Shown one piece after another: positions 973-59,340 of a stretch of 64,000 bases of DNA. This DNA comes from a virus: UHGV virus genome UHGV-1366603; one strand, given 5' to 3'. The first letter of the stretch is position 1. Every line of letters starts with the position of its first letter. The position numbers and the translations under genes are program-made. The notes beneath the pieces were generated by a model. That model was not told where the DNA came from. It searched no databases and saw nothing but the letters and a program-made list of their open reading frames with translations.

Positions 973-3900
973 TTAATCGCGAATGATTACCGCCTGCACT
1001 TTATTGTTGGTGTCGATAAACGACATTACGCGCTCCTTGTTAAGATAAGGAGGTATCGGTAACGCAGCGTAATCCGCCAGGTTGTTATTAAACTCGGTTG
1101 CCACTAGCGCATTAAGCGTTTCGGGGTCTGAGCTTGTCCCGGCCAATTCCATGACACGTACACGATTTAACGAGGAGTAGTTGCTAATATAATCCAGCAG
1201 CGTACCGTAGAGTTTGTTCCCGGTTATGCTGTCTGCCGTAGAACGGATATTAGCACGCACTTCGTCCTCATAAAGTCCCCCTAAACCGTAGTAAATAGGG
1301 GTGTACGGATCGTTAACGATAGGTGCAATATTGAACCCGGTTAAACGGTCGCTTAGTGGGATTTTCTGCGTAGTGCCGCCTGCTGCTGTACAGCTTACGT
1401 ATTTATCTACCGCAGACAAGTACACCACGATAGTGTAAACGGTACCTGCTAAGGTCAGCGATGCGTTAAACGTTAAGTCGTTATTCGCACCACGCGTGTG
1501 TGTAAAAGTCACATCGGGTTGTAACGTACTCCACGGTGCAGGTGTAACACGTTTGGTGGGCGTGAAGCCTAACACCACAGATTTCCCGTTACCGAAGTTT
1601 AAACCAAACCCGGCGTAACAATACTCGCCGTTGCTATCAGTTAACCGATAACCACGGGTGACAAGTAACGACAACCGCATAAACTCGCCATCGGTGTTTT
1701 TCCAGCAACCCAGGACGGTTTCTAGCACCGTTCCGGTTTTTGCGTTGCTTTCGGTTTCCCAACTGACTCGCATCCCCGCATTGTTAAATACTGGGAACAA
1801 GTTGTGGATAAACCCGTGAACGTTATCACTTACCCCTTTCGCATCAAACACCCACTTCGACGCAAGCTGGTCGTATTTCACACCATCGAGTGCTTTATAT
1901 CCACCGCCAACCACATAACGCCAATCTGCCTCGCCACGCACAACCGCTTGAAGTCCAGAAGCCCAGCAGGGCGCACCTACTGTTAAATTGCTTAACCCCA
2001 GCACTGCACGCGGAGCAGAACGCTGAATATGTGCGTTGTCATTAGCGACGTGGTCTTTCAATTCACGGAAATCGCCTAACCGTGTCACGTTACGTAGTTC
2101 AGTAACGAACACTTCAGAAAGGTCGTTAATACCGATCAGCCCCACGCGCGTCATGGTATCCGTTTCAGCCTGACTGTAGCTGTCGTGAATAATATACTTC
2201 GCTTTGTTATCGACAATGTCAACAAAAATCCCTGCGTAAATTTCCTTATTCAGATTCGGGAAACGTTCAGTGACGTTAACCGACATCAACGGCACGTCGT
2301 ACGTTTCGCCGCCAATGAAATACGTGGAAGCAGGAAGTGTCACCAGGATTTTGTCTTTAACCGTAACGTCAATTAGGTCGTTACCGGACTTACCAAAGCG
2401 AATAATGTCAACGCGAGCACCCGAGTCAACCCCACCGACGGTATTCTCCAAATCTTCAATCTGGGAAGTCTGCGCCATCACCACACTACCATCGAGTGCT
2501 AAGGTGACATCATCCACATCCAGACCGAACTTAATCAGACCCCGTTTCGTGGTGTCTGCGTTTTCAACACCGAACACAGAAGACGGGTGTTGGTGAACCT
2601 TCGGTGAGTATTTGTCTAACTCAGTCTGTTGTGCAACAGAAATCGGTAAGTCAACGTCCGGGGTATTCGCAACGTTACCTAAACCAAAGGTAATTTTGTC
2701 GATAGTAACCGAACTGGTAAGCTGCATGTCGTTGATGTACGACTTGGCAGCAACCAACTTACCAGTAAACTCTGCGTCCAGTTTTTCAATTAGCGCAGGA
2801 GTCGCCGCGAGGTTTTCAGCCGTACCAAACTCGTCAGTCAACTGCCAACACGCTAACGTAGTAACGTCTTCGGCAACCGGAAGGATAAACGTTGCGACAA
2901 ACGGCGATGCTTTAATCCCGCTACCGGTAAGTTCCACCGTAGACGTCGACGCACCGTAGAACAGACCTGTACCGCCTGCGGTATTACCCGGCAAATACGG
3001 ACCGACCGTAGTGGGGTCTAAGAGCTTCTTACCACGCCACAACAATCCACGGTCATCGGGGTATAGCACAAGCTGGTTACCGCCTGCTTGTAACGTAACA
3101 GGGTTATTACCCACGTTAACATCGGTAGAACCTTGACCGATGAACTTAATGGATTTCGGATCAACGACGAACTGGGCACCTAAACGTTTTTCGTCAACTA
3201 CACCAGGTGCTTTCTTAATGGTAACCGTGTTACCTTTGTTTTGCGAACTAATAGAGACGCCGTCAGCAACATTATTGATCAGCGATTTAAAGTGATGCTG
3301 ATTCTCTAATGCTTCTAACGCAGCGTCCATGTTATCGAAGTTAATCCGGGAGCTATACGTTTTACCGTTTAAGCTAATAACGGCGTCAAACACGTTCCCT
3401 GTACGCTTCAGTTGAAAACGCAGCGTAAAATCCCCATCCGGTATTGCTGGATCAGGAGCTTGAGAAATGTACCGAACTGACGGTACCGGATTCCCGTAAC
3501 CGTGCAACGACAGTTCGATAGTAAGAGTACCACTCCGGACTTCACCGAAAATCTCTACGTACTTACCGGAGTTACTACCGGGATTTTCGTAGAAACGTAA
3601 ACCGGCCCTACCGACTGCCTCATTACCAGACGCTGTTTTACGTCCAGTAACAATAAAGTCAATATCTTGCAGGCTGGCGGGTACCGCGTTAAAAGAAGCA
3701 CTAAATCCATTCTTCGTTCCTGTGTAACGAAGTGCGCCGTGATACGTGCGACCTTGACTAACATAGCTTTCGCTAAAATAAGGATTCACGTATTTAGACA
3801 TCGAAACCGGATCAACTTCTGTCGTGAACGAAGTAAAACCGGATAGCGTTCCAATGGTTCCGTCGGCCGTTTTCGTAGTTGACGTGCGCAGTAGTTTCTT

Positions 3901-5295
3901 TTGCGCAGTCAATGTTGCTTGCGTTGGATACTTAGCATTAACATAATCTGTTAACTGCGGCTTCGTTTTTCCGTAAGCTAACGCTGCATCCGTCGCAATA
4001 CCATTCAACTCTAACGCACGAATCGGGCCCCAAGTGTCAGCGTGTGGGTTATCCTTACGAGTGACGTGTTCGTGTGCAGGGGCGTTGCGATAGAGTTGTT
4101 CTACTAACTGATGGTACTTAACGATTAGCTGATAAACGTCATTACTTACGTCGGCTTCTGGCGCACCAGGTAACGCAAGGAATTGAGCGTAATCGTTTTC
4201 AGCCGCCCACCAGTTTAAGTTAACGTTGGTTTTGTATTTCAGCCACTTCGCAACGTCGGTTTTGCTGTAACCTGCTGAGAATTCGTCTGGCGGTGTGTCA
4301 ACGTTAAACGTATAGTCCATGGACTGTTTGTTAGTCGTTACCTCGATAACGTATACACCATTACCCGGCTGACGAACGACACTAAACGTTAACTCGCCTT
4401 TTAATTCATCGTCGGTCAAACCGTTGATTAACGTATAATCGTAATCGGTCGAACCACTGCCTAACGCAACCGTTAGACGTAGGCCGATTTTACGTTGTTT
4501 TAATTGGAGACGAAGGATACTTGCGCCACCGTTCGCGTAACACAACATCCAATCGATTTGTTCGTTCGGATTAATACTCCCCATATTCGGAAAAATAGCC
4601 GGAATGCGGTATTTCATCGACAGGGAATATTCATTTAACGTGGTGGTTTTGTACGTAACAGAGAAACGACGTTTAGCGGTATTGTAAGTATACCCACCTT
4701 TGTTGTCGTACGTTGCGTACTGTTCAGACGTGATAACCGTGCCATTAGCGCGATGCTCGATATCTAACGTGTTACGTGCAATCGGGTCTACCCGATTCAC
4801 CACGTTACCTAACGAATCACCTAAGCCTGCAATGGCCTGCATTAATTCCAGTTCACCTTTCCAGTTTTCCCAGTCAAACTGAATATCAACCGGTGGAAAG
4901 TAAACGTCTCCGATAACGGTATCCCATTGACACGCAGACGGGTATTTATCTTTATTGAGTTCGCGTTCTGCGGTAATCTGTTCTTGGGTCGCTTCACCAC
5001 AACCTACGGCGTGGTAATCTACCGTGAAATTCGATTTGTATTTGTCGTTAACAATCCAAATCATCCCGTGCACGAGATAGGCTGTGCGCAACATACCGGT
5101 CTCGTACGGGTGTGTAATAACGTAATCGTCGCCTAAGGTCAGTATTTTGCCGCCGCTCTTGACCACCAGGGATGTGGTGAAAAAAGGGGCGTGGGCAGGT
5201 ACCAACATTCGGTACTTCGTACCAATGACGGCGACCGCTTCACCGGTTATTTTATTCCCCGGTTCTTTGAAGTGTGGGTCTAGGACGACAGCCAT
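973..5295 (-). CDS. large tail fibre / tailspike-like virion protein (1440 aa)
   Basis: ORF track. N-terminal domain (..AHAPFFTTSLVV..GDDYV..) is shared with the upstream partial gene. Size and Gly/Thr/Asn-rich repetitive body are typical of fibre proteins. No enzymatic motif recognised. Confidence 0.6.
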   Translation of the reverse strand: MAVVLDPHFKEPGNKITGEAVAVIGTKYRMLVPAHAPFFTTSLVVKSGGKILTLGDDYVITHPYETGMLRTAYLVHGMIWIVNDKYKSNFTVDYHAVGCGEATQEQITAERELNKDKYPSACQWDTVIGDVYFPPVDIQFDWENWKGELELMQAIAGLGDSLGNVVNRVDPIARNTLDIEHRANGTVITSEQYATYDNKGGYTYNTAKRRFSVTYKTTTLNEYSLSMKYRIPAIFPNMGSINPNEQIDWMLCYANGGASILRLQLKQRKIGLRLTVALGSGSTDYDYTLINGLTDDELKGELTFSVVRQPGNGVYVIEVTTNKQSMDYTFNVDTPPDEFSAGYSKTDVAKWLKYKTNVNLNWWAAENDYAQFLALPGAPEADVSNDVYQLIVKYHQLVEQLYRNAPAHEHVTRKDNPHADTWGPIRALELNGIATDAALAYGKTKPQLTDYVNAKYPTQATLTAQKKLLRTSTTKTADGTIGTLSGFTSFTTEVDPVSMSKYVNPYFSESYVSQGRTYHGALRYTGTKNGFSASFNAVPASLQDIDFIVTGRKTASGNEAVGRAGLRFYENPGSNSGKYVEIFGEVRSGTLTIELSLHGYGNPVPSVRYISQAPDPAIPDGDFTLRFQLKRTGNVFDAVISLNGKTYSSRINFDNMDAALEALENQHHFKSLINNVADGVSISSQNKGNTVTIKKAPGVVDEKRLGAQFVVDPKSIKFIGQGSTDVNVGNNPVTLQAGGNQLVLYPDDRGLLWRGKKLLDPTTVGPYLPGNTAGGTGLFYGASTSTVELTGSGIKASPFVATFILPVAEDVTTLACWQLTDEFGTAENLAATPALIEKLDAEFTGKLVAAKSYINDMQLTSSVTIDKITFGLGNVANTPDVDLPISVAQQTELDKYSPKVHQHPSSVFGVENADTTKRGLIKFGLDVDDVTLALDGSVVMAQTSQIEDLENTVGGVDSGARVDIIRFGKSGNDLIDVTVKDKILVTLPASTYFIGGETYDVPLMSVNVTERFPNLNKEIYAGIFVDIVDNKAKYIIHDSYSQAETDTMTRVGLIGINDLSEVFVTELRNVTRLGDFRELKDHVANDNAHIQRSAPRAVLGLSNLTVGAPCWASGLQAVVRGEADWRYVVGGGYKALDGVKYDQLASKWVFDAKGVSDNVHGFIHNLFPVFNNAGMRVSWETESNAKTGTVLETVLGCWKNTDGEFMRLSLLVTRGYRLTDSNGEYCYAGFGLNFGNGKSVVLGFTPTKRVTPAPWSTLQPDVTFTHTRGANNDLTFNASLTLAGTVYTIVVYLSAVDKYVSCTAAGGTTQKIPLSDRLTGFNIAPIVNDPYTPIYYGLGGLYEDEVRANIRSTADSITGNKLYGTLLDYISNYSSLNRVRVMELAGTSSDPETLNALVATEFNNNLADYAALPIPPYLNKERVMSFIDTNNKVQAVIIRD

Positions 5296-5362: not shown

Positions 5363-6625
5363 GTGACTACTGCTTATCAAGTGCGGCCTGACAGCGCTTT
5401 TGGCTTCTCTCGTGAGACCCGTACCTGGGGAGCCATCGACGTCACGCAACCCTTAGAAACCTTGTGTTCTGATTACCATATTTTCGAAGTCGGTCTGAGT
5501 GCGCTTGGTAAAGACTATACGTTAATTAGCCAATATCACCTCGCTGACTTACAAAACCGTACCGATACATTACAAGACTGGCTGAATGAAAAAGCCGGTG
5601 TGGTTATCTCTGCGTTGAAAGACGGTTTACCGACGTTAGAGTTTGATTGGGCACACTATCAATCGATTAATGCTGATGTTCCAGTAGAAACCTATCTGTG
5701 TCCTCCTGGTTATCACTACAGTCAAGAATTCAGTATAGACGATGCTGACGACGTTGTGATTGTTTGCGAAGATAAATGGAAAGACAAATACCGTAACGGG
5801 GTGCTGTATAACATCAACGGTCAATGGGTACCACATCAGTCGGATACTGTTGGTGTACGTTTACCGGGTGCAGGTAAGATAGTACGTCGTGCAGGGACAC
5901 CGGATATCGGGTGCATGGTCTTTAGTAAATTGGGGAATGTTAAAACGTACCCCATTGCTAACTTGACCTTAAACAAACTCGACACCACCCGTGACTATTA
6001 TTCCACGTTAATGATTTCTTTACCGGAATCTATTACAGGTAAAACCGTGGGGTTTGTTATCGGGGGACTGATACACTGGTTACCGGTTACTGGGTACTTC
6101 TCCGACAAAGCCATTATGGTGTCGCTACCGAACTTTGACGTTGCGCGTACTGTGTTAGAAACACGTCGCTATTACGATTGGGACAGTATTGGTGTTGGCG
6201 ATTTATCATCGCCGACCAGCGTACAGCGTATCCGCAACCCAGAAACGTTAAAGGCGCTTTTAACCCACGAGTCGTCGTTTATCTTTACGGTGGATAATCC
6301 GTATCTGGAAGAAGAAGTTGTGGGGGTTTCTCACAACGCTATCTGGGGACGTTTATACCTTAAAGATCCTACTGACCCTGACGGGGAAAAGCAGCTGGGG
6401 TATCTGTTAAACCGCTTCGGTAAAACCGTTGCCTATTGGCCGACGTGGGAAGAAGGGGAATGGGTATTTAACACCACGGAGTTCGACAGTCAAAACTACG
6501 TGTTCCGTGAAGCCCGCTGGTATAACCAGAAGAAAATTAACGATGCACAGGCAATCGTAGGGCCTTTCGGTCCCTGGGAAAAAGTCTATTTGGAAATGCA
6601 TCGTTTCCGTGCAAGAAAAAAATAA
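5363..6625 (+). CDS. hypothetical protein (~420 aa)
   Basis: In-frame GTG at 5363 with AGGAAAAG 5 nt upstream. The longer TTG-initiated ORF from 5147 would overlap the upstream gene by ~150 nt. No recognisable domain. Confidence 0.5.
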   Translation: MTTAYQVRPDSAFGFSRETRTWGAIDVTQPLETLCSDYHIFEVGLSALGKDYTLISQYHLADLQNRTDTLQDWLNEKAGVVISALKDGLPTLEFDWAHYQSINADVPVETYLCPPGYHYSQEFSIDDADDVVIVCEDKWKDKYRNGVLYNINGQWVPHQSDTVGVRLPGAGKIVRRAGTPDIGCMVFSKLGNVKTYPIANLTLNKLDTTRDYYSTLMISLPESITGKTVGFVIGGLIHWLPVTGYFSDKAIMVSLPNFDVARTVLETRRYYDWDSIGVGDLSSPTSVQRIRNPETLKALLTHESSFIFTVDNPYLEEEVVGVSHNAIWGRLYLKDPTDPDGEKQLGYLLNRFGKTVAYWPTWEEGEWVFNTTEFDSQNYVFREARWYNQKKINDAQAIVGPFGPWEKVYLEMHRFRARKK

Positions 6626-6675: not shown

Positions 6676-6885
6676 TTAGTCTTTTTTGTAGACGATCGCG
6701 TTACCGTGCAGTTTGTTGTTACCGGAAATACCGATAACTTTAAACGCTTCACCGCCGATCTTTTCAGCTTCGACAGCCAGCTTAGCAGTAACGTCGTCTA
6801 CGGTGTCACCGAAAGCGCTTACGTTACCAATTTTCTTGAACTCTTCAGGAATGTGTTCAGCAGAAGAGAATTCTTTAATAGCCAT
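6676..6885 (-). CDS. small YdgH/BhsA/McbA (DUF1471)-like domain protein, no signal peptide
   Basis: 69 aa. C-terminal pattern ..KLAVEAEKIGGEAFKVIGISGNNKLHGNAIVYKK matches the DUF1471 signature (..SG.N..HG.A..YK). Confidence 0.5.
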   Translation of the reverse strand: MAIKEFSSAEHIPEEFKKIGNVSAFGDTVDDVTAKLAVEAEKIGGEAFKVIGISGNNKLHGNAIVYKKD

Positions 6886-7084: not shown

Positions 7085-8050
7085 TTAGCGTGGGCCTGAA
7101 GTTGGGCCATGTACACCGTCGTGGATGTGTACGCTGAAGGTAATACCGGAAATCACCGCATCCTTAACTGTAAAGACACCCACACCTTCACCCGTACCAC
7201 CGTATTTGAAGTTCTTAGCAACTTCCAAATTACCGGTGAACATCGCTTCATTACCCTCTTGCTTAAAGTTCGGCGTTTTATACGTTGTGGAACCGGAGGC
7301 TTCGGTTAGCCACGTTTCTGTTTTAAAGGTAACCGATTTCGACGCTTCGGTATTCCGAACTTCGCATTTCTCATTAATCGTTTTCGTTTCCAGGTTAATC
7401 GAACGTTTTGCGTAAATGAACGCATCTTCTTTGTTGATGTTCACTTTCGAGAGCATCGCGTTCTCAAAACCTAAATCGTCTTCCACCGAGTTAATGTAAT
7501 ACTTATTCCCTTTATGGTCAACGCACTGCCACGACCCGTTAGCGTTATCGAATTGGAATAACCACGCCGCTTTCTCCCCGTTCACCATACTTGTTCTTAG
7601 GGTAACGTGTTTGTCAATCGTTGAGACGTTTAACACATACGCGTTCGACAAGTCATCCGCCATCTGGTTTTCAGGGTCAGCAGACCACGCGTAAACCGCA
7701 TCCTCTAATCGCTTAACGTTAGCGAAATTCAAATCAATCCAAAAATAAATATCGGTTTGCCCTAGACGTAGCAAGATAACATAATCTTCACGCTTAACGT
7801 CTGGGGAATTAATTCGATTGGAATTAAACTTCCACCACTTTGCGGTAATCGTGTTACCGGTTTTAATCGTTAGGTTGTCGGTAGCACCCCCGGCTTCGTG
7901 TACCTTTTCAGCGGTTGAGGAAACTGACTGTACAACGGTAGGGTTCGCAAAGTTGGTTTCAATGGGAATAACACTCACCCGATCCGTACCACGAGGTTTA
8001 TCTTCCGCGACGATACCAATCGAGAAAAAGTCAACGCTGGATTTCTCCAT
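7085..8050 (-). CDS. hypothetical protein (321 aa), possibly virion-associated
   Basis: ORF track; Thr/Asn-rich beta-type composition; lies in the minus-strand structural block. No motif recognised. Confidence 0.55.
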   Translation of the reverse strand: MEKSSVDFFSIGIVAEDKPRGTDRVSVIPIETNFANPTVVQSVSSTAEKVHEAGGATDNLTIKTGNTITAKWWKFNSNRINSPDVKREDYVILLRLGQTDIYFWIDLNFANVKRLEDAVYAWSADPENQMADDLSNAYVLNVSTIDKHVTLRTSMVNGEKAAWLFQFDNANGSWQCVDHKGNKYYINSVEDDLGFENAMLSKVNINKEDAFIYAKRSINLETKTINEKCEVRNTEASKSVTFKTETWLTEASGSTTYKTPNFKQEGNEAMFTGNLEVAKNFKYGGTGEGVGVFTVKDAVISGITFSVHIHDGVHGPTSGPR

Positions 8051-8080
8051 TAGGTCGTTCCTTAGATCGGAAATGTAATC

Positions 8081-8102
8081 AGATATATTTTACTTAGGTG
8101 AG
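8081..8102 (+). promoter_or_regulatory. candidate phage promoter motif AGATATATTTTACTTAGGTGAG, followed by a hairpin at 8104..8130
   Basis: Member of a recurring AT-rich motif family (see findings); sits at the head of the plus-strand block. Confidence 0.3.
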
Positions 8103-8438
8103 TAGGGGCTGAAGTGCGAATTCAGCCCCTATGGGCACGTTTCTTTCGAAACGGAGTTACCATGTGATTAGGAGACAGACCAATGTCTACTGAGAAGAAA
8201 AGCGGATTGGACGAAGTCATCGAATTGTTCAAACGCTACAACCCGGCTATTCCTCGGTAATCATAGTATTACTTAAAATTTACAGATTGTCCCTTTATTC
8301 TGCTACTCGGGATACCGGTAGGGGGTAGGGGGCAATATGTATACGGATATAAATAGCGGAGGTATACGTAGTATACCGACATACTCTTCCCAGAGGAACG
8401 TAGTGACTTCCTTATTCCTTTTTAGGAGAATAAACCTC

Positions 8439-9173
8439 ATGAGAGAATTATTAGACGATATCTTTACCAACACCAGTTTAGAACTTTCTTCTACAGTGGT
8501 TAACGAACTAATAAAACAATCGCAACCTGCTAAGTTAGTCACTGTCAGGGTAGTTAACCCTAAAGATTATCTAGGCTGCGATATCATAAACGGTACGATC
8601 GATGAGTACGCAATTGGTATTTACGCCGACTGGGTCTTCTTTGTTCTTAATACCGAAACCGGTGTCATGTTAACCTACACGATGAGTAGTGATGTCGAAC
8701 ACGAAGTTGTAGCGAAACATATTCGCCACATTGCCAGCACGCCTACCTTTTCCGACGTTACGTTTATTGGGGGAAGCACTATGCTGACGTTATTCTCTTA
8801 CTTCCCACTGTTTAGACATGGGGTAGGGTTAATCAAGCATGTAGAAAACCTTCCCGCTGATGTAGAATTAACGTTGCTCGGTCGGGACATTAGTCTTTAT
8901 CCCTTAAAAGATAACGGTAAGTTATACGGTTTACGTATCTATGTTTCTTGGTTAGAGGGATACCGCGTTATTGAACTGATTGCATCGGATTTAACAAAAC
9001 AAATCCCAGAGGTGGAAACGATTTCTAAAGCCACCCACCTGGTTGAGATTAACCCAGACGATCCGTTTTTACAGTATCACAATGAAATTGCCCTTCGTGG
9101 TATCGCTGCCGTAAAAGGGTGGGGGTGTGCTGAGATTACGAAGGGGTATCTGCTGTTAATTAAAACCGCGTAA
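8439..9173 (+). CDS. hypothetical protein, divergent member of tandem paralog family 1
   Basis: ATG at 8439 preceded by TAGGAGA. C-terminus ..AAVKGWGCAEITKGYLLLIKTA resembles the GW..V...G.QLLF.A tail of the next three genes. Confidence 0.55.
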   Translation: MRELLDDIFTNTSLELSSTVVNELIKQSQPAKLVTVRVVNPKDYLGCDIINGTIDEYAIGIYADWVFFVLNTETGVMLTYTMSSDVEHEVVAKHIRHIASTPTFSDVTFIGGSTMLTLFSYFPLFRHGVGLIKHVENLPADVELTLLGRDISLYPLKDNGKLYGLRIYVSWLEGYRVIELIASDLTKQIPEVETISKATHLVEINPDDPFLQYHNEIALRGIAAVKGWGCAEITKGYLLLIKTA

Positions 9174-9198
9174 GTAAAAACCTAAAGGAGAAAATATC

Positions 9199-9753
9199 AT
9201 GTTTCAAACTGAACTGAAAATTGAAATTATCCAAACCCTTGAAAAAGGCGTAGGCGAACATTTCTTTAGCTGTCCTTATACCGTACTGACCAATACCATT
9301 ATTCAGCCAGGCGCGATGATAGTAGGGGTGAGGGTACAAGCTGTGGAGGAAACCCCGCTGCGTCGCAACATCACTCGTAAAAACCATATCCCATTTAGAA
9401 CGGGTTTTACAGATTACTTTCAGAGCTTACTGAAAGATAGCGTTTGGAAAACGGGCAGCTTCTTCCACGAAGGGAAGACGTCCACGCTGGTTTATAAAGA
9501 AAATACCAAGTATCTGGTTGATTTTCTCTTAGCGCGGCAATACGATTTCTTTCCATCCCCTTCTGGCACCACCCCTGATAATCCAGGTAAGTTATTAAAC
9601 CAAGACGAAGCCGAAGCACTCTTTACAAAACTTCGGAATGAGCAGTGCGATGTTGACGACTGGGAAACATTGATCGCGGTCGCTAAAGCCCACGGTTGGT
9701 ATACTGTACGTAAACTCGGCCAGCAGTTGTTGTTCTTAGCTTATAATGTTTAA
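9199..9753 (+). CDS. hypothetical protein, paralog family 1 (C-terminal GW..V...GxQLLF motif)
   Basis: ORF track; SD AAAGGAG; C-terminus AKAHGWYTVRKLGQQLLFLAYNV. Confidence 0.7.
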   Translation: MFQTELKIEIIQTLEKGVGEHFFSCPYTVLTNTIIQPGAMIVGVRVQAVEETPLRRNITRKNHIPFRTGFTDYFQSLLKDSVWKTGSFFHEGKTSTLVYKENTKYLVDFLLARQYDFFPSPSGTTPDNPGKLLNQDEAEALFTKLRNEQCDVDDWETLIAVAKAHGWYTVRKLGQQLLFLAYNV

Positions 9754-9781
9754 GTAACGAAAACCCTAAAGGAGAGTAAAA

Positions 9782-10933
9782 ATGCGAAATATTATTTCTA
9801 AACCAGGACATGTCAAAATCCTAAAAGAACTGATGGACAGATGCTATAATCAGACTTGGCCTCTGCCAAGCTTAACCATCGAGTCTTCATTACAACGTGA
9901 GTTGTTTGGTTATAACTTGGGCTGCTGTGTACTTACTGAATACAATGAGATTATCGCGCCTGTCGATATCTGTACTTACGATGAAGAAATTGAAGGTTAC
10001 AAGTTCGCGGTTTACACAAATTCTGGACTAAATTACCGTAAACTCGTTGTTAGAGAAAAGAGTAGCAACCGGAAGATTATGTTTAAAGTCTTCCCAAGTG
10101 GTAAAGTCAGTAATTTATGTTTTCAGCTTGAGCAAGTGCCCTTTCACGGTGCGGACATTTTAACTAAACCAGAACTCGCGTTATTAAGCGGGTTAATCGG
10201 CTTTGAAGCAAAAACCATCAAAGTTGAGCAGGAACTTACACAAAACGATTTCGGCTCAAGTTGGTACGAAAGTTTCTTCCGCTACGAAATGTTAAGTGAT
10301 AAAGCTATCAAACTCACTTACCGTTCTACCGACGATCTCGTTTACCACATTTTAATTAGCGGCGAACCCCACCTGATTATTGAAGACAAAGGAGAAAATC
10401 AAATGTCTGCCTTAAAAGACGAATTAGCCCAATTCATTCGTGACGTTGAAGAGAAAAGCAAGAGCGATCATATTTTCTCACAACGCTATCCTGAACTTAT
10501 TGACGAAACCACCGATAGTGTTGTCGATGGTATACGCATTTTCCCAAGTGGTCTTGCAATTTACCGACTGCCTAGCGTTAACCAGCTTAAAGTCATGGAA
10601 ATGCTAAAAGACGTTTTAGCAGAAGCGGGTTGGGAATATCGCTTCGATTGCAATTTCGAAGGGATGGCGTTATTCGTTACAAAGAAAAACTATACCTTGT
10701 CAATCGATCTGCCTAAAAGTCAATACTACAGTTTCTTCCCAAAAGCGTATGACCGCACTGAAAAAGAACCTGCGATGTTACTTGATGCGGCAGAATCCAA
10801 TACGTTAATGATGCATTTGCGGTCAATTGACAAAAAGTTAAATACTAGTCATTTAACGACGATCGGTAAAGATTACGGTTGGAAATCTGTCGAACCGTAC
10901 GGCAGTCAGCTGCTGTTTGTTGCTGACCTTTAA
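9782..10933 (+). CDS. hypothetical protein, paralog family 1
   Basis: ORF track; SD AAAGGAG; C-terminus GKDYGWKSVEPYGSQLLFVADL. Confidence 0.7.
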   Translation: MRNIISKPGHVKILKELMDRCYNQTWPLPSLTIESSLQRELFGYNLGCCVLTEYNEIIAPVDICTYDEEIEGYKFAVYTNSGLNYRKLVVREKSSNRKIMFKVFPSGKVSNLCFQLEQVPFHGADILTKPELALLSGLIGFEAKTIKVEQELTQNDFGSSWYESFFRYEMLSDKAIKLTYRSTDDLVYHILISGEPHLIIEDKGENQMSALKDELAQFIRDVEEKSKSDHIFSQRYPELIDETTDSVVDGIRIFPSGLAIYRLPSVNQLKVMEMLKDVLAEAGWEYRFDCNFEGMALFVTKKNYTLSIDLPKSQYYSFFPKAYDRTEKEPAMLLDAAESNTLMMHLRSIDKKLNTSHLTTIGKDYGWKSVEPYGSQLLFVADL

Positions 10934-11000
10934 TAAGTGAAAATACACTTTCTCTAACTGCCGCGCTTTAGTCGCGGCTTTTGTTAAGAAGGAAATAGAA

Positions 11001-11774
11001 ATGAAAGTCCATTTAGACGATATCTTTAAAACCGAACCGTATATGATCGAAGGTCCGCTAACGTCCCTACTATTCGCCGATAGACTAGATCGTACGTTGC
11101 AATTACAATCGGTCGAATCTGCACCGATTAACGATGTAGAGCGCTACGAGCGTATCAACCATACGCGGGGTGAGTATCGTCGCTATAAGCCAAACTCACT
11201 AACCATCAAACTTTGGAAAGTAAGCACAGGTAAAGTATTAACTTATCGCGCCGTTGGTAGTTATTACATTCAACAGGCCAAAGAGTGGTTAGAAAAAGTT
11301 AAAGAACTGAACTTCGATCTACTGAGCAAAAAACTGCGCGATCATAACGCCAGTTTGCCGATACGTAATTATTTCGCCACGATTGAAAATAGTCGTTGCT
11401 TCGTTTCCAGCAAGTCTATGATCTTACCCGGGGCTGATGTTCAAACAACACTGAAAGATGTGGTTGTGAAGAAAATCTTTCATGAATCTGAACACGTTGG
11501 ATTTCGTATCTATTTAACGCACAAGAGGCCATTTACCGTGATTCATGTTGTTACCGCACCCGAAGGCTCAGCAGTCGTACGTGAACTTCCTGACGCACGT
11601 GACCGCAGCCCTAATGAGCCGCTTTACTTAATGTCAGGAACAAAATCAGAATCTTTGATGTCCCGTTACAGCATGGTTGATGTTGTTGATACTGCTATGA
11701 AGTTAGGTTGGAAAGAAGTACAGCAGCACGGCAAACAATTGCTGTTTATCGCAGATGTAAATCTCAATAACTAA
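11001..11774 (+). CDS. hypothetical protein, paralog family 1
   Basis: ORF track; SD AAGGAAA; C-terminus AMKLGWKEVQQHGKQLLFIADVNLNN. Confidence 0.7.
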   Translation: MKVHLDDIFKTEPYMIEGPLTSLLFADRLDRTLQLQSVESAPINDVERYERINHTRGEYRRYKPNSLTIKLWKVSTGKVLTYRAVGSYYIQQAKEWLEKVKELNFDLLSKKLRDHNASLPIRNYFATIENSRCFVSSKSMILPGADVQTTLKDVVVKKIFHESEHVGFRIYLTHKRPFTVIHVVTAPEGSAVVRELPDARDRSPNEPLYLMSGTKSESLMSRYSMVDVVDTAMKLGWKEVQQHGKQLLFIADVNLNN

Positions 11775-11786
11775 AGAGGTGGTACC

Positions 11787-12365
11787 GTGTACCGATTAAT
11801 AGAAATGAGAAAAGACGTTTGGTTGGAAAACCTCGTCGATGGGGAGCTTGAGGGAATAGAGCTTTCCTTACCAGAGAGAGCGGACACGGTATTGGCCTTT
11901 CTGGTAAAACAGGCAGACCGTGAACCGGTAGGAATCTTCACTGTGGACTATAAAGATCCACGAGGAATTCATTTACGGAACATTTGCAGTGGTTTGGAAA
12001 ACTTACCGGCTAATCCGTTCTTAAACTACGCAAAACGTAAACTCCAAACGGGACAACACCTCTGGGTAACGTTATCGCCTGACGTTAGGATCATACGTGA
12101 CGATTACTCGGCGTTTGTACAGGCAACGAAAGTCAGTCTGTATAACCCGAACGCAGAGCGTACCGATATGCCGTTTATAATTACCTTAGAAGACGATGGA
12201 ACGCAAGAAGGTATTGAGGCAATTACGGAATTAGTAAATTCTTATCCGGTTGCCACTATTGAGTTAGAAAACCCAAACCGATTACCGTTGGGTGACCTGC
12301 TCGAATGGATCGAACTGAATACAGAATTCTTAATCAATTCTCGTCAGTATCGATTCGACGTTTAA
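11787..12365 (+). CDS. hypothetical protein (192 aa)
   Basis: GTG start with AAAGAGGTGG just upstream; no motif recognised. Confidence 0.55.
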   Translation: MYRLIEMRKDVWLENLVDGELEGIELSLPERADTVLAFLVKQADREPVGIFTVDYKDPRGIHLRNICSGLENLPANPFLNYAKRKLQTGQHLWVTLSPDVRIIRDDYSAFVQATKVSLYNPNAERTDMPFIITLEDDGTQEGIEAITELVNSYPVATIELENPNRLPLGDLLEWIELNTEFLINSRQYRFDV

Positions 12366-12369
12366 CAAC

Positions 12370-12400
12370 GGTGGGGTGTAAGCCCCACCTTTTATTTTTT
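12370..12400 (+). terminator. rho-independent terminator (GGTGGGG-loop-CCCCACC + T-run)
   Basis: 7-bp GC stem followed by TTTTATTTTTT directly after the stop of 11787..12365. Confidence 0.6.
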
Positions 12401-12425
12401 GTTCGCTAACATTAAAAATAATCTC

Positions 12426-12447
12426 AGATATATATTACTCAGGTGAG
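12426..12447 (+). promoter_or_regulatory. candidate phage promoter motif AGATATATATTACTCAGGTGAG, followed by a hairpin
   Basis: Contains TATATTAC; lies between the terminator and the first secreted-protein gene; followed by hairpin AGAGTTAA-GAT-TTAACTCT. Confidence 0.35.
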
Positions 12448-12494
12448 AGTTAAGATTAACTCTTTTACTTGTTAACCCCACGAGGAGCAAAACA

Positions 12495-12956
12495 ATGAAA
12501 ATCTTCACTTCCTTTTTAATCGCCCTTTTCGCAATCGGATTCAATACTGCACACGCCGCAATCAATAGCTGGGAACAACTACCGAACCCAGGTCAGACTG
12601 TTTACGAAATTGAAGACACCGCCGGAAACGGACTGTCTATCAACTGTGACACTGAAACTGCGAATCGCAAATTTTACGGTCGTATGGTTTGGTATTACGG
12701 GGAACCTGTAGGTGCAACTAACGCTGAAGACAACACGATGGATATCGTCGTAAATGGCAAAACCTACAACATCCCTACGGTGGATGGCAGTGACAAAGCA
12801 GAGCTCGCTTGGGTGGCTTTCGTTAACGCTATCGGTAACGCCAAAACTTTCAGTGTGAACATCAATGGTAACGAAGCTGCTAACTTTACCGTAGAAGGCG
12901 AACGTCTGTCTGAAACTTTCTTCCAGAACTGTGGACACACCCGTCCTAACAAATAA
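12495..12956 (+). CDS. small secreted protein (signal peptide)
   Basis: N-terminus MKIFTSFLIALFAIGFNTAHA (hydrophobic core, AxA site); SD GAGGAG; two Cys. Confidence 0.65.
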   Translation: MKIFTSFLIALFAIGFNTAHAAINSWEQLPNPGQTVYEIEDTAGNGLSINCDTETANRKFYGRMVWYYGEPVGATNAEDNTMDIVVNGKTYNIPTVDGSDKAELAWVAFVNAIGNAKTFSVNINGNEAANFTVEGERLSETFFQNCGHTRPNK

Positions 12957-12978
12957 GTAATAATCTTTTTTAGAGTGC

Positions 12979-13371
12979 GTGAAAATGAATATCAGAACTA
13001 TACTTTATTCAATCATTATTTTCTGTGCAATCGGTATTACTGGCACTTATGCTTTCGGCGATTCGGACGTCCGCCATTACGAACCGGCTCCTGACTCGCC
13101 CATTATCAACCCGGATGAGTCCCCTACGTTAATGCGCAGTTTCGGTAAACTGCAAGTTTATCGCTTAGTACGTGGTGAAACGTGTACCGGATTACTCATT
13201 GCTGACACCCGTGCACAGGTCTACCAACGTCTGACGGATATCGCCTGCGAACAACCAAAAGTCATGTCGGTCAGTATTCATCCGTTAGAGGTCGGTAACT
13301 ATACTGCTGTGGACTTCTTCCATAATGCAGAACTGATTGGTCGTATCACTTTAAATCGTAGCGCTGAATAA
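12979..13371 (+). CDS. small secreted or membrane-anchored protein
   Basis: N-terminal hydrophobic segment ILYSIIIFCAIGITGTYAFG; start may be GTG 12979 or ATG 12985. Confidence 0.55.
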   Translation: MKMNIRTILYSIIIFCAIGITGTYAFGDSDVRHYEPAPDSPIINPDESPTLMRSFGKLQVYRLVRGETCTGLLIADTRAQVYQRLTDIACEQPKVMSVSIHPLEVGNYTAVDFFHNAELIGRITLNRSAE

Positions 13372-13389
13372 TTTAATGGAGAATTTACA

Positions 13390-13872
13390 ATGAAACGTTT
13401 ACACACCCTGATGCTTTTCGTGGCTATTCTGTTCACAGGCTTTACCTTTAACACAGAAGCGGCTACCGTAAAACAAGCACTTAGCTGTAACCCGGAAGCC
13501 TGGGCTGAACAACCTGGTGCGTGTCCTGACATCAATACGCTCTATACCGACGACGCGACTTATAAAGCCGCAATCGATAAAGCGTTGAAACCTGTCGGAC
13601 TAGACGGGTTATTCGGTAAAGATGGTGTAATGAATGGTCCTGGCGGCGATGTTATTCCCGTGCAAATCAACGGTAAAGTCTGGCTTGAGTCTACCGCTTG
13701 CAAAAGCAATGCTTGTGGTTGGGAATACATCACGACGCTTTATAACCCGCAGACCCATGTCGTGGTAGGTTACTATTACAACGTCGACCCAGGTTACCTG
13801 GTCTGGTTCGGCGATATCGGCGTTAACGAATTCGCCTATCTGGTTAAGAAATACGTAGCTACGGTTAATTAA
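13390..13872 (+). CDS. secreted protein, Ivy-like (candidate periplasmic lysozyme / lytic-transglycosylase inhibitor)
   Basis: Signal peptide MKRLHTLMLFVAILFTGFTFNTEA. Loop ..ESTACKSNACGW.. matches the Ivy-family ..SACKPHDCG.. arrangement (C-x4-C with Lys at position 2), but the loop His is replaced by Asn. Confidence 0.45.
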   Translation: MKRLHTLMLFVAILFTGFTFNTEAATVKQALSCNPEAWAEQPGACPDINTLYTDDATYKAAIDKALKPVGLDGLFGKDGVMNGPGGDVIPVQINGKVWLESTACKSNACGWEYITTLYNPQTHVVVGYYYNVDPGYLVWFGDIGVNEFAYLVKKYVATVN

Positions 13873-13887
13873 TTTAAGGAGTCTGTC

Positions 13888-14298
13888 ATGAAAACGTTTA
13901 TCAAAACTTTACTCGTTGCTGTAACTGTTCTGTTCTCTCTTAACGTAGCAGCAAAAACAATAAAGCTACCGGCGGGTATCAAATACGTCAACAGTACCGA
14001 TGAATTCTACTGCACTGAAATTGACGGCCTGTATTGCCAGACAAAGAATTTGTTTGAATACAAAGGTAACAGATATGTTTTCGTTGTTGAGCAAGGTGGT
14101 GCCTGGTGCTACGACAGCCCTATGTCGGTACTCAACCTGGAAACTTGGAAAGCACAGAAAATTGAATACAAAGACAACCAACTGTGTTCAGGCGAAAACA
14201 AACCGTTCTTCAAAATCAAAAATGGTGTGCCGACTGTAGGTATTATCGACACCTCTGGAGCACCCATCGTTGTAGCTCAGGACAAACTTAAAATCTAA
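13888..14298 (+). CDS. small secreted protein (signal peptide, multiple Cys)
   Basis: N-terminus MKTFIKTLLVAVTVLFSLNVAA; SD AAGGAG. Confidence 0.65.
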   Translation: MKTFIKTLLVAVTVLFSLNVAAKTIKLPAGIKYVNSTDEFYCTEIDGLYCQTKNLFEYKGNRYVFVVEQGGAWCYDSPMSVLNLETWKAQKIEYKDNQLCSGENKPFFKIKNGVPTVGIIDTSGAPIVVAQDKLKI

Positions 14299-14308
14299 GG
14301 AGTAAACC

Positions 14309-14698
14309 ATGCGTCTTATCTGCGCTTTGTTGGCGTTTTTCTCAATCGGAGTTATGGCTTCTACACACATCGACGATTTATTACTTACCCCGGCAACGAA
14401 CACAGACTATCACTACAACCCACCGGGTTTTGAAGTCTGCGAAGGCGATGCAGGCGAATGCCAAGAAGTTGGCGCAGATGGACGCTATATACTCGTAAAA
14501 GCAGACGGCGGGACAACCTGCCCTGCGGGTTATTATTTCGTACTTGACGCTGTAGCAAAAGAGGTACTTCCTGTAACGACCAAAACGTGTGACCCCACAG
14601 TTGTACTAACGCTTGCGAAAAGCAAATCACGTGACCGCCATCTTATCGTCATCGAAGAACGCGGTGAGATGCTAGGCGCTATCGAATTAGATTACTGA
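14309..14698 (+). CDS. small secreted protein (signal peptide, Cys-rich)
   Basis: N-terminus MRLICALLAFFSIGVMAS; SD TAAGGAG. Confidence 0.65.
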   Translation: MRLICALLAFFSIGVMASTHIDDLLLTPATNTDYHYNPPGFEVCEGDAGECQEVGADGRYILVKADGGTTCPAGYYFVLDAVAKEVLPVTTKTCDPTVVLTLAKSKSRDRHLIVIEERGEMLGAIELDY

Positions 14699-24125: not shown

Positions 24126-24136
24126 AATAAAAGCTA

Positions 24137-24172
24137 CCCTACTCCCGAAAAGGAGTAGGGTAATTTCTTTTA
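24137..24172. terminator. bidirectional terminator between convergent genes (CCCTACTCC-CGAAAA-GGAGTAGGG, T/A runs on both sides)
   Basis: Same stem sequence as the hairpin at 23524; flanked by A-rich 5' and T-rich 3' sequence. Confidence 0.6.
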
Positions 24173-30162: not shown

Positions 30163-30176
30163 ATATTATTCAGGTG
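30158..30176 (+). promoter_or_regulatory. candidate phage promoter motif AGATAGATATTATTCAGGTG
   Basis: Matches the recurring AGATAT-ATT-AC/TC-AGGTG motif, upstream of gene 30200. Confidence 0.3.
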
Positions 30177-38757: not shown

Positions 38758-38775
38758 AGATATTATTTACGTGAG
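38758..38775 (+). promoter_or_regulatory. candidate phage promoter motif AGATATTATTTACGTGAG
   Basis: Member of the recurring motif family, ~20 nt upstream of gene 38796. Confidence 0.3.
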
Positions 38776-42952: not shown

Positions 42953-42958
42953 CACCTA

Positions 42959-42997
42959 CCCTACTCCTGTCTGGGAGTAGGGTATTTTCATTTTTTA
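42959..42997 (+). terminator. rho-independent terminator (CCCTACTCC-loop-GGAGTAGGG + T-run)
   Basis: Third copy of the identical CCCTACTCC/GGAGTAGGG stem, followed by TATTTTCATTTTTT. Confidence 0.6.
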
Positions 42998-57711: not shown

Positions 57712-59337
57712 GTGAATAAACTTAATTGGGTTGACTTTTATCTGCTCAATGTAAACAAGTCTCTTGTGTCGCGATTACGACCCGTCACGACCACAGATAC
57801 TTTTCAAGGGTTGACAAAAAACTTTCACCCTGAAGGGTTATACTCCACGGAGATATTCGGTCTTACGGGAAGTGAAGCCCGAGACTCAACGTTTTCTTAC
57901 ATTGATATTAAATTAGATATCATTTCGCCGACGGTGTGTTTGGCGTTATTCCAACTAAAACAACTCTACGAAGAAATTTGTTCTGGAAAACGCTACGCAA
58001 CCTGGAGCGAAAAAGAAAAAGATTTTGAACCGGCTTTGCCTGGCGACGCTGGCGCAGATACCGGTTTTAACTTTTTCCTTAGTCACTACAACGACTTAAA
58101 ACCCGGACGTAACGAATCGTTACAACGTGACGAAACGGTGGATTTCTTCGAGAAGTTCCGTCCCGTGAGTCTTAGCCGCTATGTTCTCGTATTACCCGCA
58201 GGTTTACGTGATTTGGTGGTTAGACAAGACGGTAGGGAACAGGAAGAGGAAATCGGCGGGTTATATCGTCGTTTGATTTCTTTGGCCAGGGCGATTCCTG
58301 ACCGTGCCACACGGGTTGAATTAACGAACCCTGTGCGATGGAAACTCCAACAAACCTTTAACGAAATCTGGATGTACTTCTTTAACATCCAGGACGGTAA
58401 AGGGGGTTTCCAACGTCGTAAAGTGACGTCGCGTAAACTGATGAACGGGACACGTAACGTATTGTCCTCATTCTCCACAGGCTCTAAATGCATGGGGCGT
58501 GAGGATGCGATTCGACCAACTGACACCAAAATTGGTTTGTATCAGGGTCTGAAGGCGTTACTGCCCGTTGCGCAATACCAGATACGTGAACGTTACCTCG
58601 GTAACATTCGTGCTGGCGATGGCAACCTTTACGGCGTAAACACCAAAACGCTTAAACGCGAGTTCTTGGAAGTTGGGGGTCGAGTTTACGACACCTTTAC
58701 CACGGACGACGGTATCGAAACATTAATTAACCGAATGGAAGCTCGCGAGCTTCGTCATCAGCCGTTAATGATTAACGATACCCATTACGTCGCGTTAGTC
58801 TACCAAGACAACAAACATTTTAAGGTGTTCTACGATATCGATGAACTGCCTAAAACGTTTGACCGTAAAAACGTCCACGGAATGACCCTGGTAGAACTAC
58901 TCTACTTATCGGGTTACGATCTGTGGAACAACTATTTCGGTTTCGTTACACGTTATCCCGTCACCGGTCGAGGCTCGACGTACTCATCGACCATAAGATT
59001 GGAGACCACCACGTCATCTTTATACTTAAAAGAACTGGAAGATGACTGGGAGACTGAAAAGCCTCGCGGGGCAATCAGTTATCCTGACCGGTCGGTTCCA
59101 ACCTTTGTTGAGTCGATGGCACCGCACCCGTCACGACTGGGTGGCTTAGGGGGTGACTACGACGGTGACACCGGTTCACTTAACGCGCCTATGTCGGAAG
59201 AAGCGCTCGAGGAAAACCGTAACTGGGTACACTCGAAGAACTACTGGTTCGACTCTGACGGGAATTTCAAAATCAACCCCGTCAACAACGTGATTAAACG
59301 TGCGACGCAAGCGTTATTAAAGAATCCAAAAGGCTAA
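57712..59337 (+). CDS. multisubunit RNA polymerase beta-prime-like subunit, N-terminal fragment (split RNAP)
   Basis: GTG start with AGGAG 7 nt upstream. Motifs ..GLYSTEIFG.., ..IDIKLDIISPTV.., ..VLVLPAGLRDLV..GGLYRRLISL.., ..GGDYDGDTGSLNAP.. align with bacterial RpoC landmarks (ARIFGP, HIELASP, VLPVLPPDLRPLV / LYRRVIN, NADFDGD). No Zn-finger cysteines. Confidence 0.65.
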   Translation: MNKLNWVDFYLLNVNKSLVSRLRPVTTTDTFQGLTKNFHPEGLYSTEIFGLTGSEARDSTFSYIDIKLDIISPTVCLALFQLKQLYEEICSGKRYATWSEKEKDFEPALPGDAGADTGFNFFLSHYNDLKPGRNESLQRDETVDFFEKFRPVSLSRYVLVLPAGLRDLVVRQDGREQEEEIGGLYRRLISLARAIPDRATRVELTNPVRWKLQQTFNEIWMYFFNIQDGKGGFQRRKVTSRKLMNGTRNVLSSFSTGSKCMGREDAIRPTDTKIGLYQGLKALLPVAQYQIRERYLGNIRAGDGNLYGVNTKTLKREFLEVGGRVYDTFTTDDGIETLINRMEARELRHQPLMINDTHYVALVYQDNKHFKVFYDIDELPKTFDRKNVHGMTLVELLYLSGYDLWNNYFGFVTRYPVTGRGSTYSSTIRLETTTSSLYLKELEDDWETEKPRGAISYPDRSVPTFVESMAPHPSRLGGLGGDYDGDTGSLNAPMSEEALEENRNWVHSKNYWFDSDGNFKINPVNNVIKRATQALLKNPKG

Positions 59338-59340
59338 TCA

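Follow-up and report, generated by a model that had tools for sequence, protein, structure and literature searches.

An array of four tandem genes with a common C-terminal domain in an uncultured SPN3US-like jumbo phage

The phage from which UHGV virus genome UHGV-1366603 derives is an uncultured jumbo phage of approximately 225 kb, related to Salmonella phage SPN3US and to the Erwinia phages phiEaH2 and Stratton. A stretch of 64,000 nucleotides (nt) of this genome was analysed (referred to here as the window, to which all coordinates refer). Between positions 8439 and 11774 it carries four consecutive plus-strand genes, designated A to D, whose products end in the same short tail, GW..V...G.QLLF.A, and the question raised by this locus is what the four proteins share beyond their last residues and what such an array is for. 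A reading made from the DNA letters without database searches (the sequence-only reading) had seen in this tandem, diversified arrangement the pattern expected of host-takeover or anti-defence effectors with a common targeting or assembly tail. Our results show that A to D are genuine coding genes and belong to a single narrow phage family, as yet uncharacterised; the tail is predicted to be the end of a folded domain which occurs at the C-termini of otherwise unrelated proteins, mostly in jumbo phages. In this phage and its closest relatives, the array built on that domain is a divergence hot spot.

Paralogy of the four genes

The array and the gene that follows it are arranged as follows:

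8439-9173, plus strand: gene A, 244 amino acids (aa); paralogous to D over the full length, C-terminal domain degenerate
9199-9753, plus strand: gene B, 184 aa; entire product homologous to the C-terminal half of C
9782-10933, plus strand: gene C, 383 aa; about 210 aa of unique N-terminal sequence, a B-like region and the C-terminal domain, in this order
11001-11774, plus strand: gene D, 257 aa; the ancestral copy and positional ortholog of SPN3US gp175, nearest to the family consensus
11787-12365, plus strand: gene E, 192 aa; co-directional, beginning 12 nt after D, matching phrog_20879 (unknown function), not a member of the family

When the six-frame translation of the window was searched with a regular expression for the tail motif, only A, B, C and D were matched, and no match was obtained in 200 triplet shuffles of the window. 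The four plus-strand genes of 244, 184, 383 and 257 aa that the sequence-only reading had singled out were thus confirmed as a unique set by this search and by the significant BLASTP, hhalign and hidden Markov model (HMM) results given below; all of the tails that it listed are present, although they were given in the order B, C, D, A rather than in gene order.

By BLASTP, B was similar to C (E = 5e-11 over 182 aa), C to D (8.5e-10 over 142 aa), B to D (2e-6) and A to D (0.006 over 108 aa). For a more sensitive comparison by hhalign, profiles were built from orthologs in four diverged contigs, with gene E as the control. A and D were aligned over their full length (E = 9.5e-6, residues 1-241 against 1-250), and B and C over 168 columns (1.3e-12), with the entire B product aligned to residues 214-381 of C, while the C-D (3.2e-10) and B-D (1.4e-5) alignments were both confined to the C-terminal domain. 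The A-B and A-C comparisons were not significant, and gene E had no similarity to A-D by BLASTP or hhalign. A family HMM recovered D (1.7e-22), B (3.3e-19), C (6.9e-19) and A (1.5e-10), and nothing else in the window. The C-terminal similarity is therefore significant, and it extends well past the 20-residue tail in which it was first noticed.

Because of the pattern of BLASTP and hhalign alignments, full-length for A-D, covering all of B for B-C and domain-only for C-D and B-D, the array consists of two pairs, A/D and B/C, connected solely by the shared domain. A is a full-length paralog of D whose domain has decayed, and B and C are a second pair, which has nothing but the domain in common with D. 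The description of the four genes as paralogs is thus supported, and they are under purifying selection (see below), but they are two pairs and not four copies of one gene; likewise, the N-terminal parts differ only in part, since A and D are paralogous throughout and all of B finds its match in C. No homologs of the N-terminal 210 aa of C were found beyond the phage's own clade.

The possibility that the tail similarity reflects chance or composition, or that the open reading frames (ORFs) are not genes, is already refuted by these results. Paralog E-values reach down to 1e-12 and the motif was absent from the shuffled windows; in addition, all four ORFs are kept in contigs of 45-94% identity, where their dN/dS stays below 1, and a confident structure model was obtained for D.

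The shared C-terminal domain

Alignment with the homologs from phages SPN3US, Phobos and phiEaH2 delimited a domain of approximately 65-75 residues. Its consensus begins with [IL]PD..DR[ST].N[DE]P.YLMS(A/S), followed by a helix, a variable loop, a second helix with GW at its end and, lastly, a hairpin of the form ..V...G.QLLFIA. Family members were taken to end 0-12 residues after the LLF strand, and all four window proteins end 2-7 residues past the LL[FL] motif. The domain occupies the following positions, those in A-C having been assigned from alignments:

8985-9170, plus strand: equivalent domain of A
9532-9750, plus strand: equivalent domain of B
10718-10930, plus strand: equivalent domain of C
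11568-11771, plus strand: C-terminal domain of D, residues 190-257

Conserved elements of the domain are a polar loop, P-D-x-x-D-R-[ST]-x-N-x-P, and the G-x-Q of the hairpin, both of which are complete in D (LPDARDRSPNEP and GKQ). Most of the polar loop is retained in C (FPKAYDRTEKEP, with GSQ) and part of it in B (FPSPSGTTPDNP, with GQQ), while A has lost both DR[ST].N.P and G.Q and has IPEVETISKAT and KGY in their place.

A structure was predicted with AlphaFold2 (AF2) for D only, using a 50-row alignment. The model of the full-length protein had a predicted local distance difference test score (pLDDT) of 85.4 and a predicted template modelling score (pTM) of 0.67. Within it, strand 208-211, helices 213-222 and 225-234, and strands 237-243 and 246-251 form a block with pLDDT values of 78-91. 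In this confident model, what the sequence-only reading saw as a shared short tail forms strands 237-243 and 246-251, with which a folded domain of about 70 residues and beta-alpha-alpha-beta-beta topology ends; it is not a free peptide.

The earlier statement that the motif could not be assigned to a known family is borne out by the searches carried out here. In Pfam, A-D had no match at E<=1 to HTH_17, MerR or any other winged-helix or helix-turn-helix (HTH) family, and the same database gave no usable match of any kind for A-D, for 50 family members or for 10 long members. The anti-phage defence profiles of PADLOC-DB gave no match for A-D, apart from a chance-level match of C to DpdF (0.021). 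A sequence-profile search of PDB chains returned chance-level matches only (Rab GTPases for the N-terminal part, E = 0.03, and T4 endonuclease II for the domain, E = 1), and fold searches with the full-length D model yielded no informative match, with none convincing among winged-helix domains.

The predicted strand and helix order nevertheless resembles that of a known fold. The Xis/MerR-type winged helix has a beta-alpha-alpha-beta-beta topology, the order predicted for D, and winged helices of the Xis/MerR/AlpA group (Pfam HTH_17 and MerR) also close helix 2 with a glycine-aromatic pair and continue into a beta-hairpin. The domain could accordingly be a nucleic-acid binder, and A-D early regulators of transcription or DNA with variable sensor or effector N-termini; single-member Pfam matches among the 50 proteins, to TBPIP (0.006), Mnd1 (0.08) and wHTH-HSP90 (0.22), are weak but of the expected kind. 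However, a family-wide match to HTH_17, MerR or a similar profile was not obtained even at E<=1. Across the family the two helices are joined by anything from about 2 to more than 40 residues and not by a tight turn, a variation that a helix-turn-helix does not tolerate, and the domain is neutral to acidic, with a mean charge of -0.3 and a median isoelectric point of 6.3 in the family and charges of -1 to -3 in the four window copies, and has no basic surface. A winged-helix regulator is thus an unlikely explanation, and because of the near-neutral charge and the variable insert of 2-40 residues between the helices, protein binding is favoured over DNA binding.

Distribution of the domain family

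An exhaustive HMMER profile search of 1.84 billion cluster representatives (E<=1e-3) matched 66 proteins, two of which were spurious repeat proteins, leaving 64 credible cluster representatives. The cluster representative of D (P0014) and near-identical representatives of B and C (P0051 and P0053) were recovered among them. The domain is nearly always at the extreme C-terminus of proteins of 180-550 aa with unrelated N-termini, and is N-terminal in a few. Most members are found in SPN3US-like and phiKZ-like jumbo phages, and a contig with a 223-aa member also encodes a phiKZ-type S80 prohead protease. Proteins of 72-106 aa that consist of the domain by itself exist in other phages. One of these lies on a 22-kb contig beside genes for a Cro/CI-type HTH protein, an N6/N4 methyltransferase and a Bro-N protein, and another on a 112-kb phage contig near glutaredoxin and dNK genes. 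Since stand-alone members occur in these other phage contexts, the domain is likely to function on its own.

In the PHROG database, matches were obtained to the C-termini of phrog_26772, phrog_33648, phrog_24489, phrog_18480 and phrog_27793, all of which are annotated as of unknown function. The C-termini of the PHROG profiles aligned to the last 60-70 residues of D with E-values of 3.8e-11 (phrog_26772), 1.6e-7, 7e-6 and 6.8e-4. C was also matched by phrog_26772 (8.9e-5), and since only the last 60-80 profile positions were covered, these similarities are at the level of the domain. B gave a weak match (0.16) and A none. PHROGs divides the family into several full-length clusters in which the shared domain is not recognised, and by these alignments the domain, which is absent from Pfam, unites several PHROG clusters of unknown function. 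The family was thus already known as such clusters and as GenBank "hypothetical proteins", while four points are new: that its members share this domain, that the array consists of two pairs, that D is orthologous to SPN3US gp175, and that the array behaves as a hot spot (see below).

A conserved C-terminal domain behind variable cargo is also the arrangement seen with the C-terminal domain (CTD) of the type IX secretion system (T9SS), which is a sorting domain. By analogy the family domain could be a sorting signal for its N-terminal cargo, by which such cargo would be imported into the phage nucleus, docked on its shell, or packaged in the capsid as ejection proteins, and the concentration of members in SPN3US-like and phiKZ-like jumbo phages, one of them on the contig with the S80 prohead protease, would agree with this. 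The stand-alone proteins of 72-106 aa, which have no cargo, argue against a pure sorting tag, as does the small-phage-like context of the one beside the Cro/CI-type HTH, methyltransferase and Bro-N genes. With the further evidence from the locus given in the next section, a sorting function is considered improbable.

The locus in cultured relatives

In SPN3US, Phobos, phiEaH2, Stratton and Machina, a family gene is the first sizeable plus-strand gene past the divergent baseplate assembly gene. These genes are SPN3US gp175 (AEP84008.1 / YP_009153469.1, 412 aa), Stratton gp194, phiEaH2 AFQ96642, Phobos gp176 and Machina gp185-187, and all are annotated as "hypothetical protein". A six-frame search of 9-14 kb per locus with the family HMM found one copy each in SPN3US, Stratton, phiEaH2 and Phobos, three tandem copies in Machina (gp185-187, at 2685-4741 of locus L018) and in contig L015 (288-2343), and four in the window and its clade. 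Since other genera hold three tandem members at this locus, expansion of the array occurred more than once.

SPN3US gp175 and its positional orthologs have the same C-terminal domain as the window genes (tblastn 1e-5 to 1e-7, HMM 1e-23 to 1e-27). As in the window, they lie after the divergent baseplate gene with an AT-rich promoter-like motif upstream, and they are preceded by a hairpin like that of D, but from one genus to another their N-terminal parts have no sequence relationship. The hairpin in the window is:

10958-10978, plus strand: terminator-like hairpin CTGCCGCG-CTTTAGT-CGCGGC with a T-run behind it, in the gap between C and D

Homologous hairpins, with an identical loop and compensatory changes in the stem, lie 5' of SPN3US gp175 and of Stratton gp194. 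This homology upstream of D identifies D as the ancestral gene and positional ortholog of SPN3US gp175, and A-C as additions in the clade. A single D ortholog was present on 72 contigs.

The neighbours of the array are virion structural genes and the baseplate assembly gene (phrog_3216), which is transcribed divergently. This position would suit the sorting of cargo into virions, and it would also suit a structural role, in which A-D are baseplate or tail accessory proteins and the domain is their assembly interface. In the records of the relatives, however, the neighbouring genes are labelled as virion structural proteins and the family gene is not, and its transcription is divergent from that of the structural genes, behind an early-type motif; both observations speak against a sorting signal. 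As for a structural role, the array is on the opposite strand from the baseplate gene, where a promoter-like motif and terminators of its own set it apart as a unit. A copy number that varies from 1 to 4, together with N-termini unrelated between genera, would be unusual for stoichiometric parts. SPN3US gp175 is also absent from the core, essential and virion gene tables examined, and its absence from the core and essential lists is a further point against a structural part. A structural role is therefore regarded as very improbable.

Gene E matched phrog_20879 at 2.8e-32. Its homologs in SPN3US (gp177) and Stratton (gp196) are both separated from the family gene, and no homolog was found in the Phobos or Machina loci; gene E was for these reasons rejected as an obligate partner of the family.

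Divergence and selection in the array

Protein identities to contig L013 were 97-99% for the virion, baseplate and SMC genes on either side of the array, but 79, 74, 61 and 82% for A, B, C and D, respectively. The array thus stands out from its flanks as a hot spot of divergence. The identities form a mosaic: A and B are 43-45% identical to their counterparts in contig L011 and 70-80% to those in contig L012, while D is 75% identical to both. These mosaic identities and the high synonymous divergence (dS) in the array indicate that alleles are exchanged by recombination within it. Values of dN/dS were 0.23-0.69 for A, 0.15-0.24 for B, 0.17-0.37 for C and 0.11-0.15 for D, by which all four genes are under purifying selection, with A the most relaxed and D the slowest-evolving. 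A divergence hot spot of this kind fits genes at the phage-host interface.

The clade to which the window belongs also includes contigs L003-L006 and L011-L013, and is without a DNA-level match among 50,697 GenBank phage records; a nucleotide search with the region 8300-11900 against the same records likewise gave no match.

Transcription signals

Reading of the intergenic regions revealed an AT-rich motif upstream of the array, which a k-mer search for repeated promoter words alone had not found. The signals around the array are as follows:

8081-8102, plus strand: AT-rich promoter-like motif AGATATATTTTACTTAGGTGAG (consensus AGATATATWTTACTYAGGTGAG), probably early and of the virion RNA polymerase (RNAP) type
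8103-8131, plus strand: GC-rich hairpin TAGGGGCTGAA...TTCAGCCCCTA, read from the sequence, immediately past the promoter-like motif
8183-8260, plus strand: putative 25-codon ORF (MSTEKKSGLDEVIELFKRYNPAIPR), between the promoter-like motif and the leader of gene A
8317-8377, plus strand: conserved leader in front of gene A, comprising two G5 tracts (GGTAGGGGGTAGGGGGC) at 8317-8333 and the hairpin GGTATAC-GTA-GTATACC at 8361-8377
12370-12389, plus strand: intrinsic-terminator-like hairpin after E, closing the unit
12426-12447, plus strand: second copy of the promoter-like motif, at the start of the next block (putative small secreted proteins)

In its degenerate form the motif has two exact matches in the window (8081 and 12426), against 0.01 expected. 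Weaker copies are located at 30165-30176 and 38762-38773, and every copy is intergenic and on the plus strand. The motif is kept in the contigs of the clade, and variants of it are found directly 5' of the family gene in three other genera, represented by SPN3US, Stratton and Phobos. According to a review, in jumbo phages that encode RNAPs, phage-specific AT-rich motifs of approximately 10 nt mark the early promoters of the virion RNAP and are located upstream of early operons (PMC7598289). By analogy, the motif is probably the early promoter consensus of this phage group, recognised by the virion RNAP. The sequence-only reading had placed the four genes directly behind the motif, and it is indeed upstream of them, but approximately 340 nt from gene A, with the hairpin, the 25-codon ORF and the leader in between. 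The hairpin at 8103-8131 may form a stem-loop at the 5' end, or it may serve the divergent baseplate gene as its terminator.

The leader of gene A was aligned with the corresponding sequences of SPN3US, Stratton, phiEaH2 and the clade contigs, and its stem shows compensatory changes, being GGTATCC/GGATACC in SPN3US and GGTGAC/GTCACC in Stratton. It precedes gene A in the window, SPN3US gp174 (at approximately 5420-5500 of locus L001) and Stratton gp193 (at approximately 3500-3570 of locus L014). Rfam gave no match in the region 7900-12600, which includes the leader.

Proposed function

The autonomous neutral domain, its invariant polar loop, the interchangeable N-termini, the recombination hot spot, the early-type motif and the lack of virion annotation in relatives together suggest that A-D are non-structural and probably early accessory proteins, and on sequence evidence they are candidate host-interaction proteins. 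In this proposal, to which we assign a probability of roughly 0.4, the C-terminal domain would bind a common partner while the N-termini diversify at the phage-host interface. Transcription would start early from the motif at 8081-8102 and proceed as one or two units (A-B-C and D-E). The conserved domain would act as an autonomous protein-binding module, engaging one conserved host or phage partner through the polar loop (PD..DR[ST].N.P) and the GW / G.Q hairpin. The interchangeable N-terminal modules might then confer variable activities or specificities at the phage-host interface, for example in host takeover or counter-defence.

The early-operon accessory and anti-defence loci of lytic phages, such as the first early genes of T7 and T3, are non-essential and variable in content. 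The array is like these loci in being first behind an early-type promoter, in its variable content and in its rapid turnover between close relatives. There is no sequence or structural relationship between them, and an anti-defence function for the array is suggested by analogy only.

Several points weigh against the proposed accessory role. The term "binding module" is an argument by exclusion, made after fold searches with the model gave no informative match, and the invariant polar loop may instead have an enzymatic or nucleic-acid-binding role. The inferred early timing comes solely from the sequence motif and from analogy; no transcriptome, time-course or expression data for SPN3US-like phages, including SPN3US gp174-177, were found in the literature. 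Nor was any literature found on a family member, including SPN3US gp175 and its neighbours; for gp175 the only hits were same-numbered proteins of phiKZ or PhiPA3. The analysis brought up no partner for the domain, and gene E, next to the array, does not accompany the family consistently. Finally, the high dS in the array reflects recombination and is not proof of positive selection.

If the accessory role is correct, the locus would be a compact and recognisable hot spot at which host-interaction modules are exchanged among SPN3US-like jumbo phages on a C-terminal handle that they have in common, and it would offer an entry to the partner of that handle and to the mining of takeover and counter-defence activities in a largely unannotated phage group. 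The immediate significance is modest, the concrete yield being the delineation of the domain, the assignment of D as the ortholog of SPN3US gp175, and the hot spot behind a conserved motif.

Other features of the window

The window also contains split genes for the beta subunit of a multisubunit RNAP (57712-63507), as well as genes for a 2377-aa tail fibre/transglycosylase and for SbcC-, UvsX- and RNase H-like proteins. The best DNA identity of the RNAP beta gene to cultured phages was 76%. Near-identical contigs of approximately 225 kb were found in metagenomes and in many assemblies of Salmonella, Shigella and E. coli isolates, the latter suggesting carriage in bacterial cultures, either as a carrier state or as contamination.

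Past the second copy of the promoter-like motif, five successive small ORFs of 153, 130, 160, 136 and 129 aa are located at 12495-14698 on the plus strand. All have signal-peptide-like N-termini, and their orthologs in related contigs match the enterobacterial family PF27224 (YfjT). A YdgH/BhsA-like (DUF1471) gene is found at 6676-6885 on the minus strand. These five ORFs and the gene at 6676-6885 look like host-derived secreted or periplasmic proteins carried on a jumbo phage.

Two kinds of repeated sequence were noted in the window. The commonest repeated words are 9-mers containing the palindrome CGTTAACG, with 8-9 occurrences each. One palindromic terminator-like sequence (TACCCTACTCC...GGAGTAGGGTA) occurs at two distant intergenic sites, 24135-24162 and 42957-42984.

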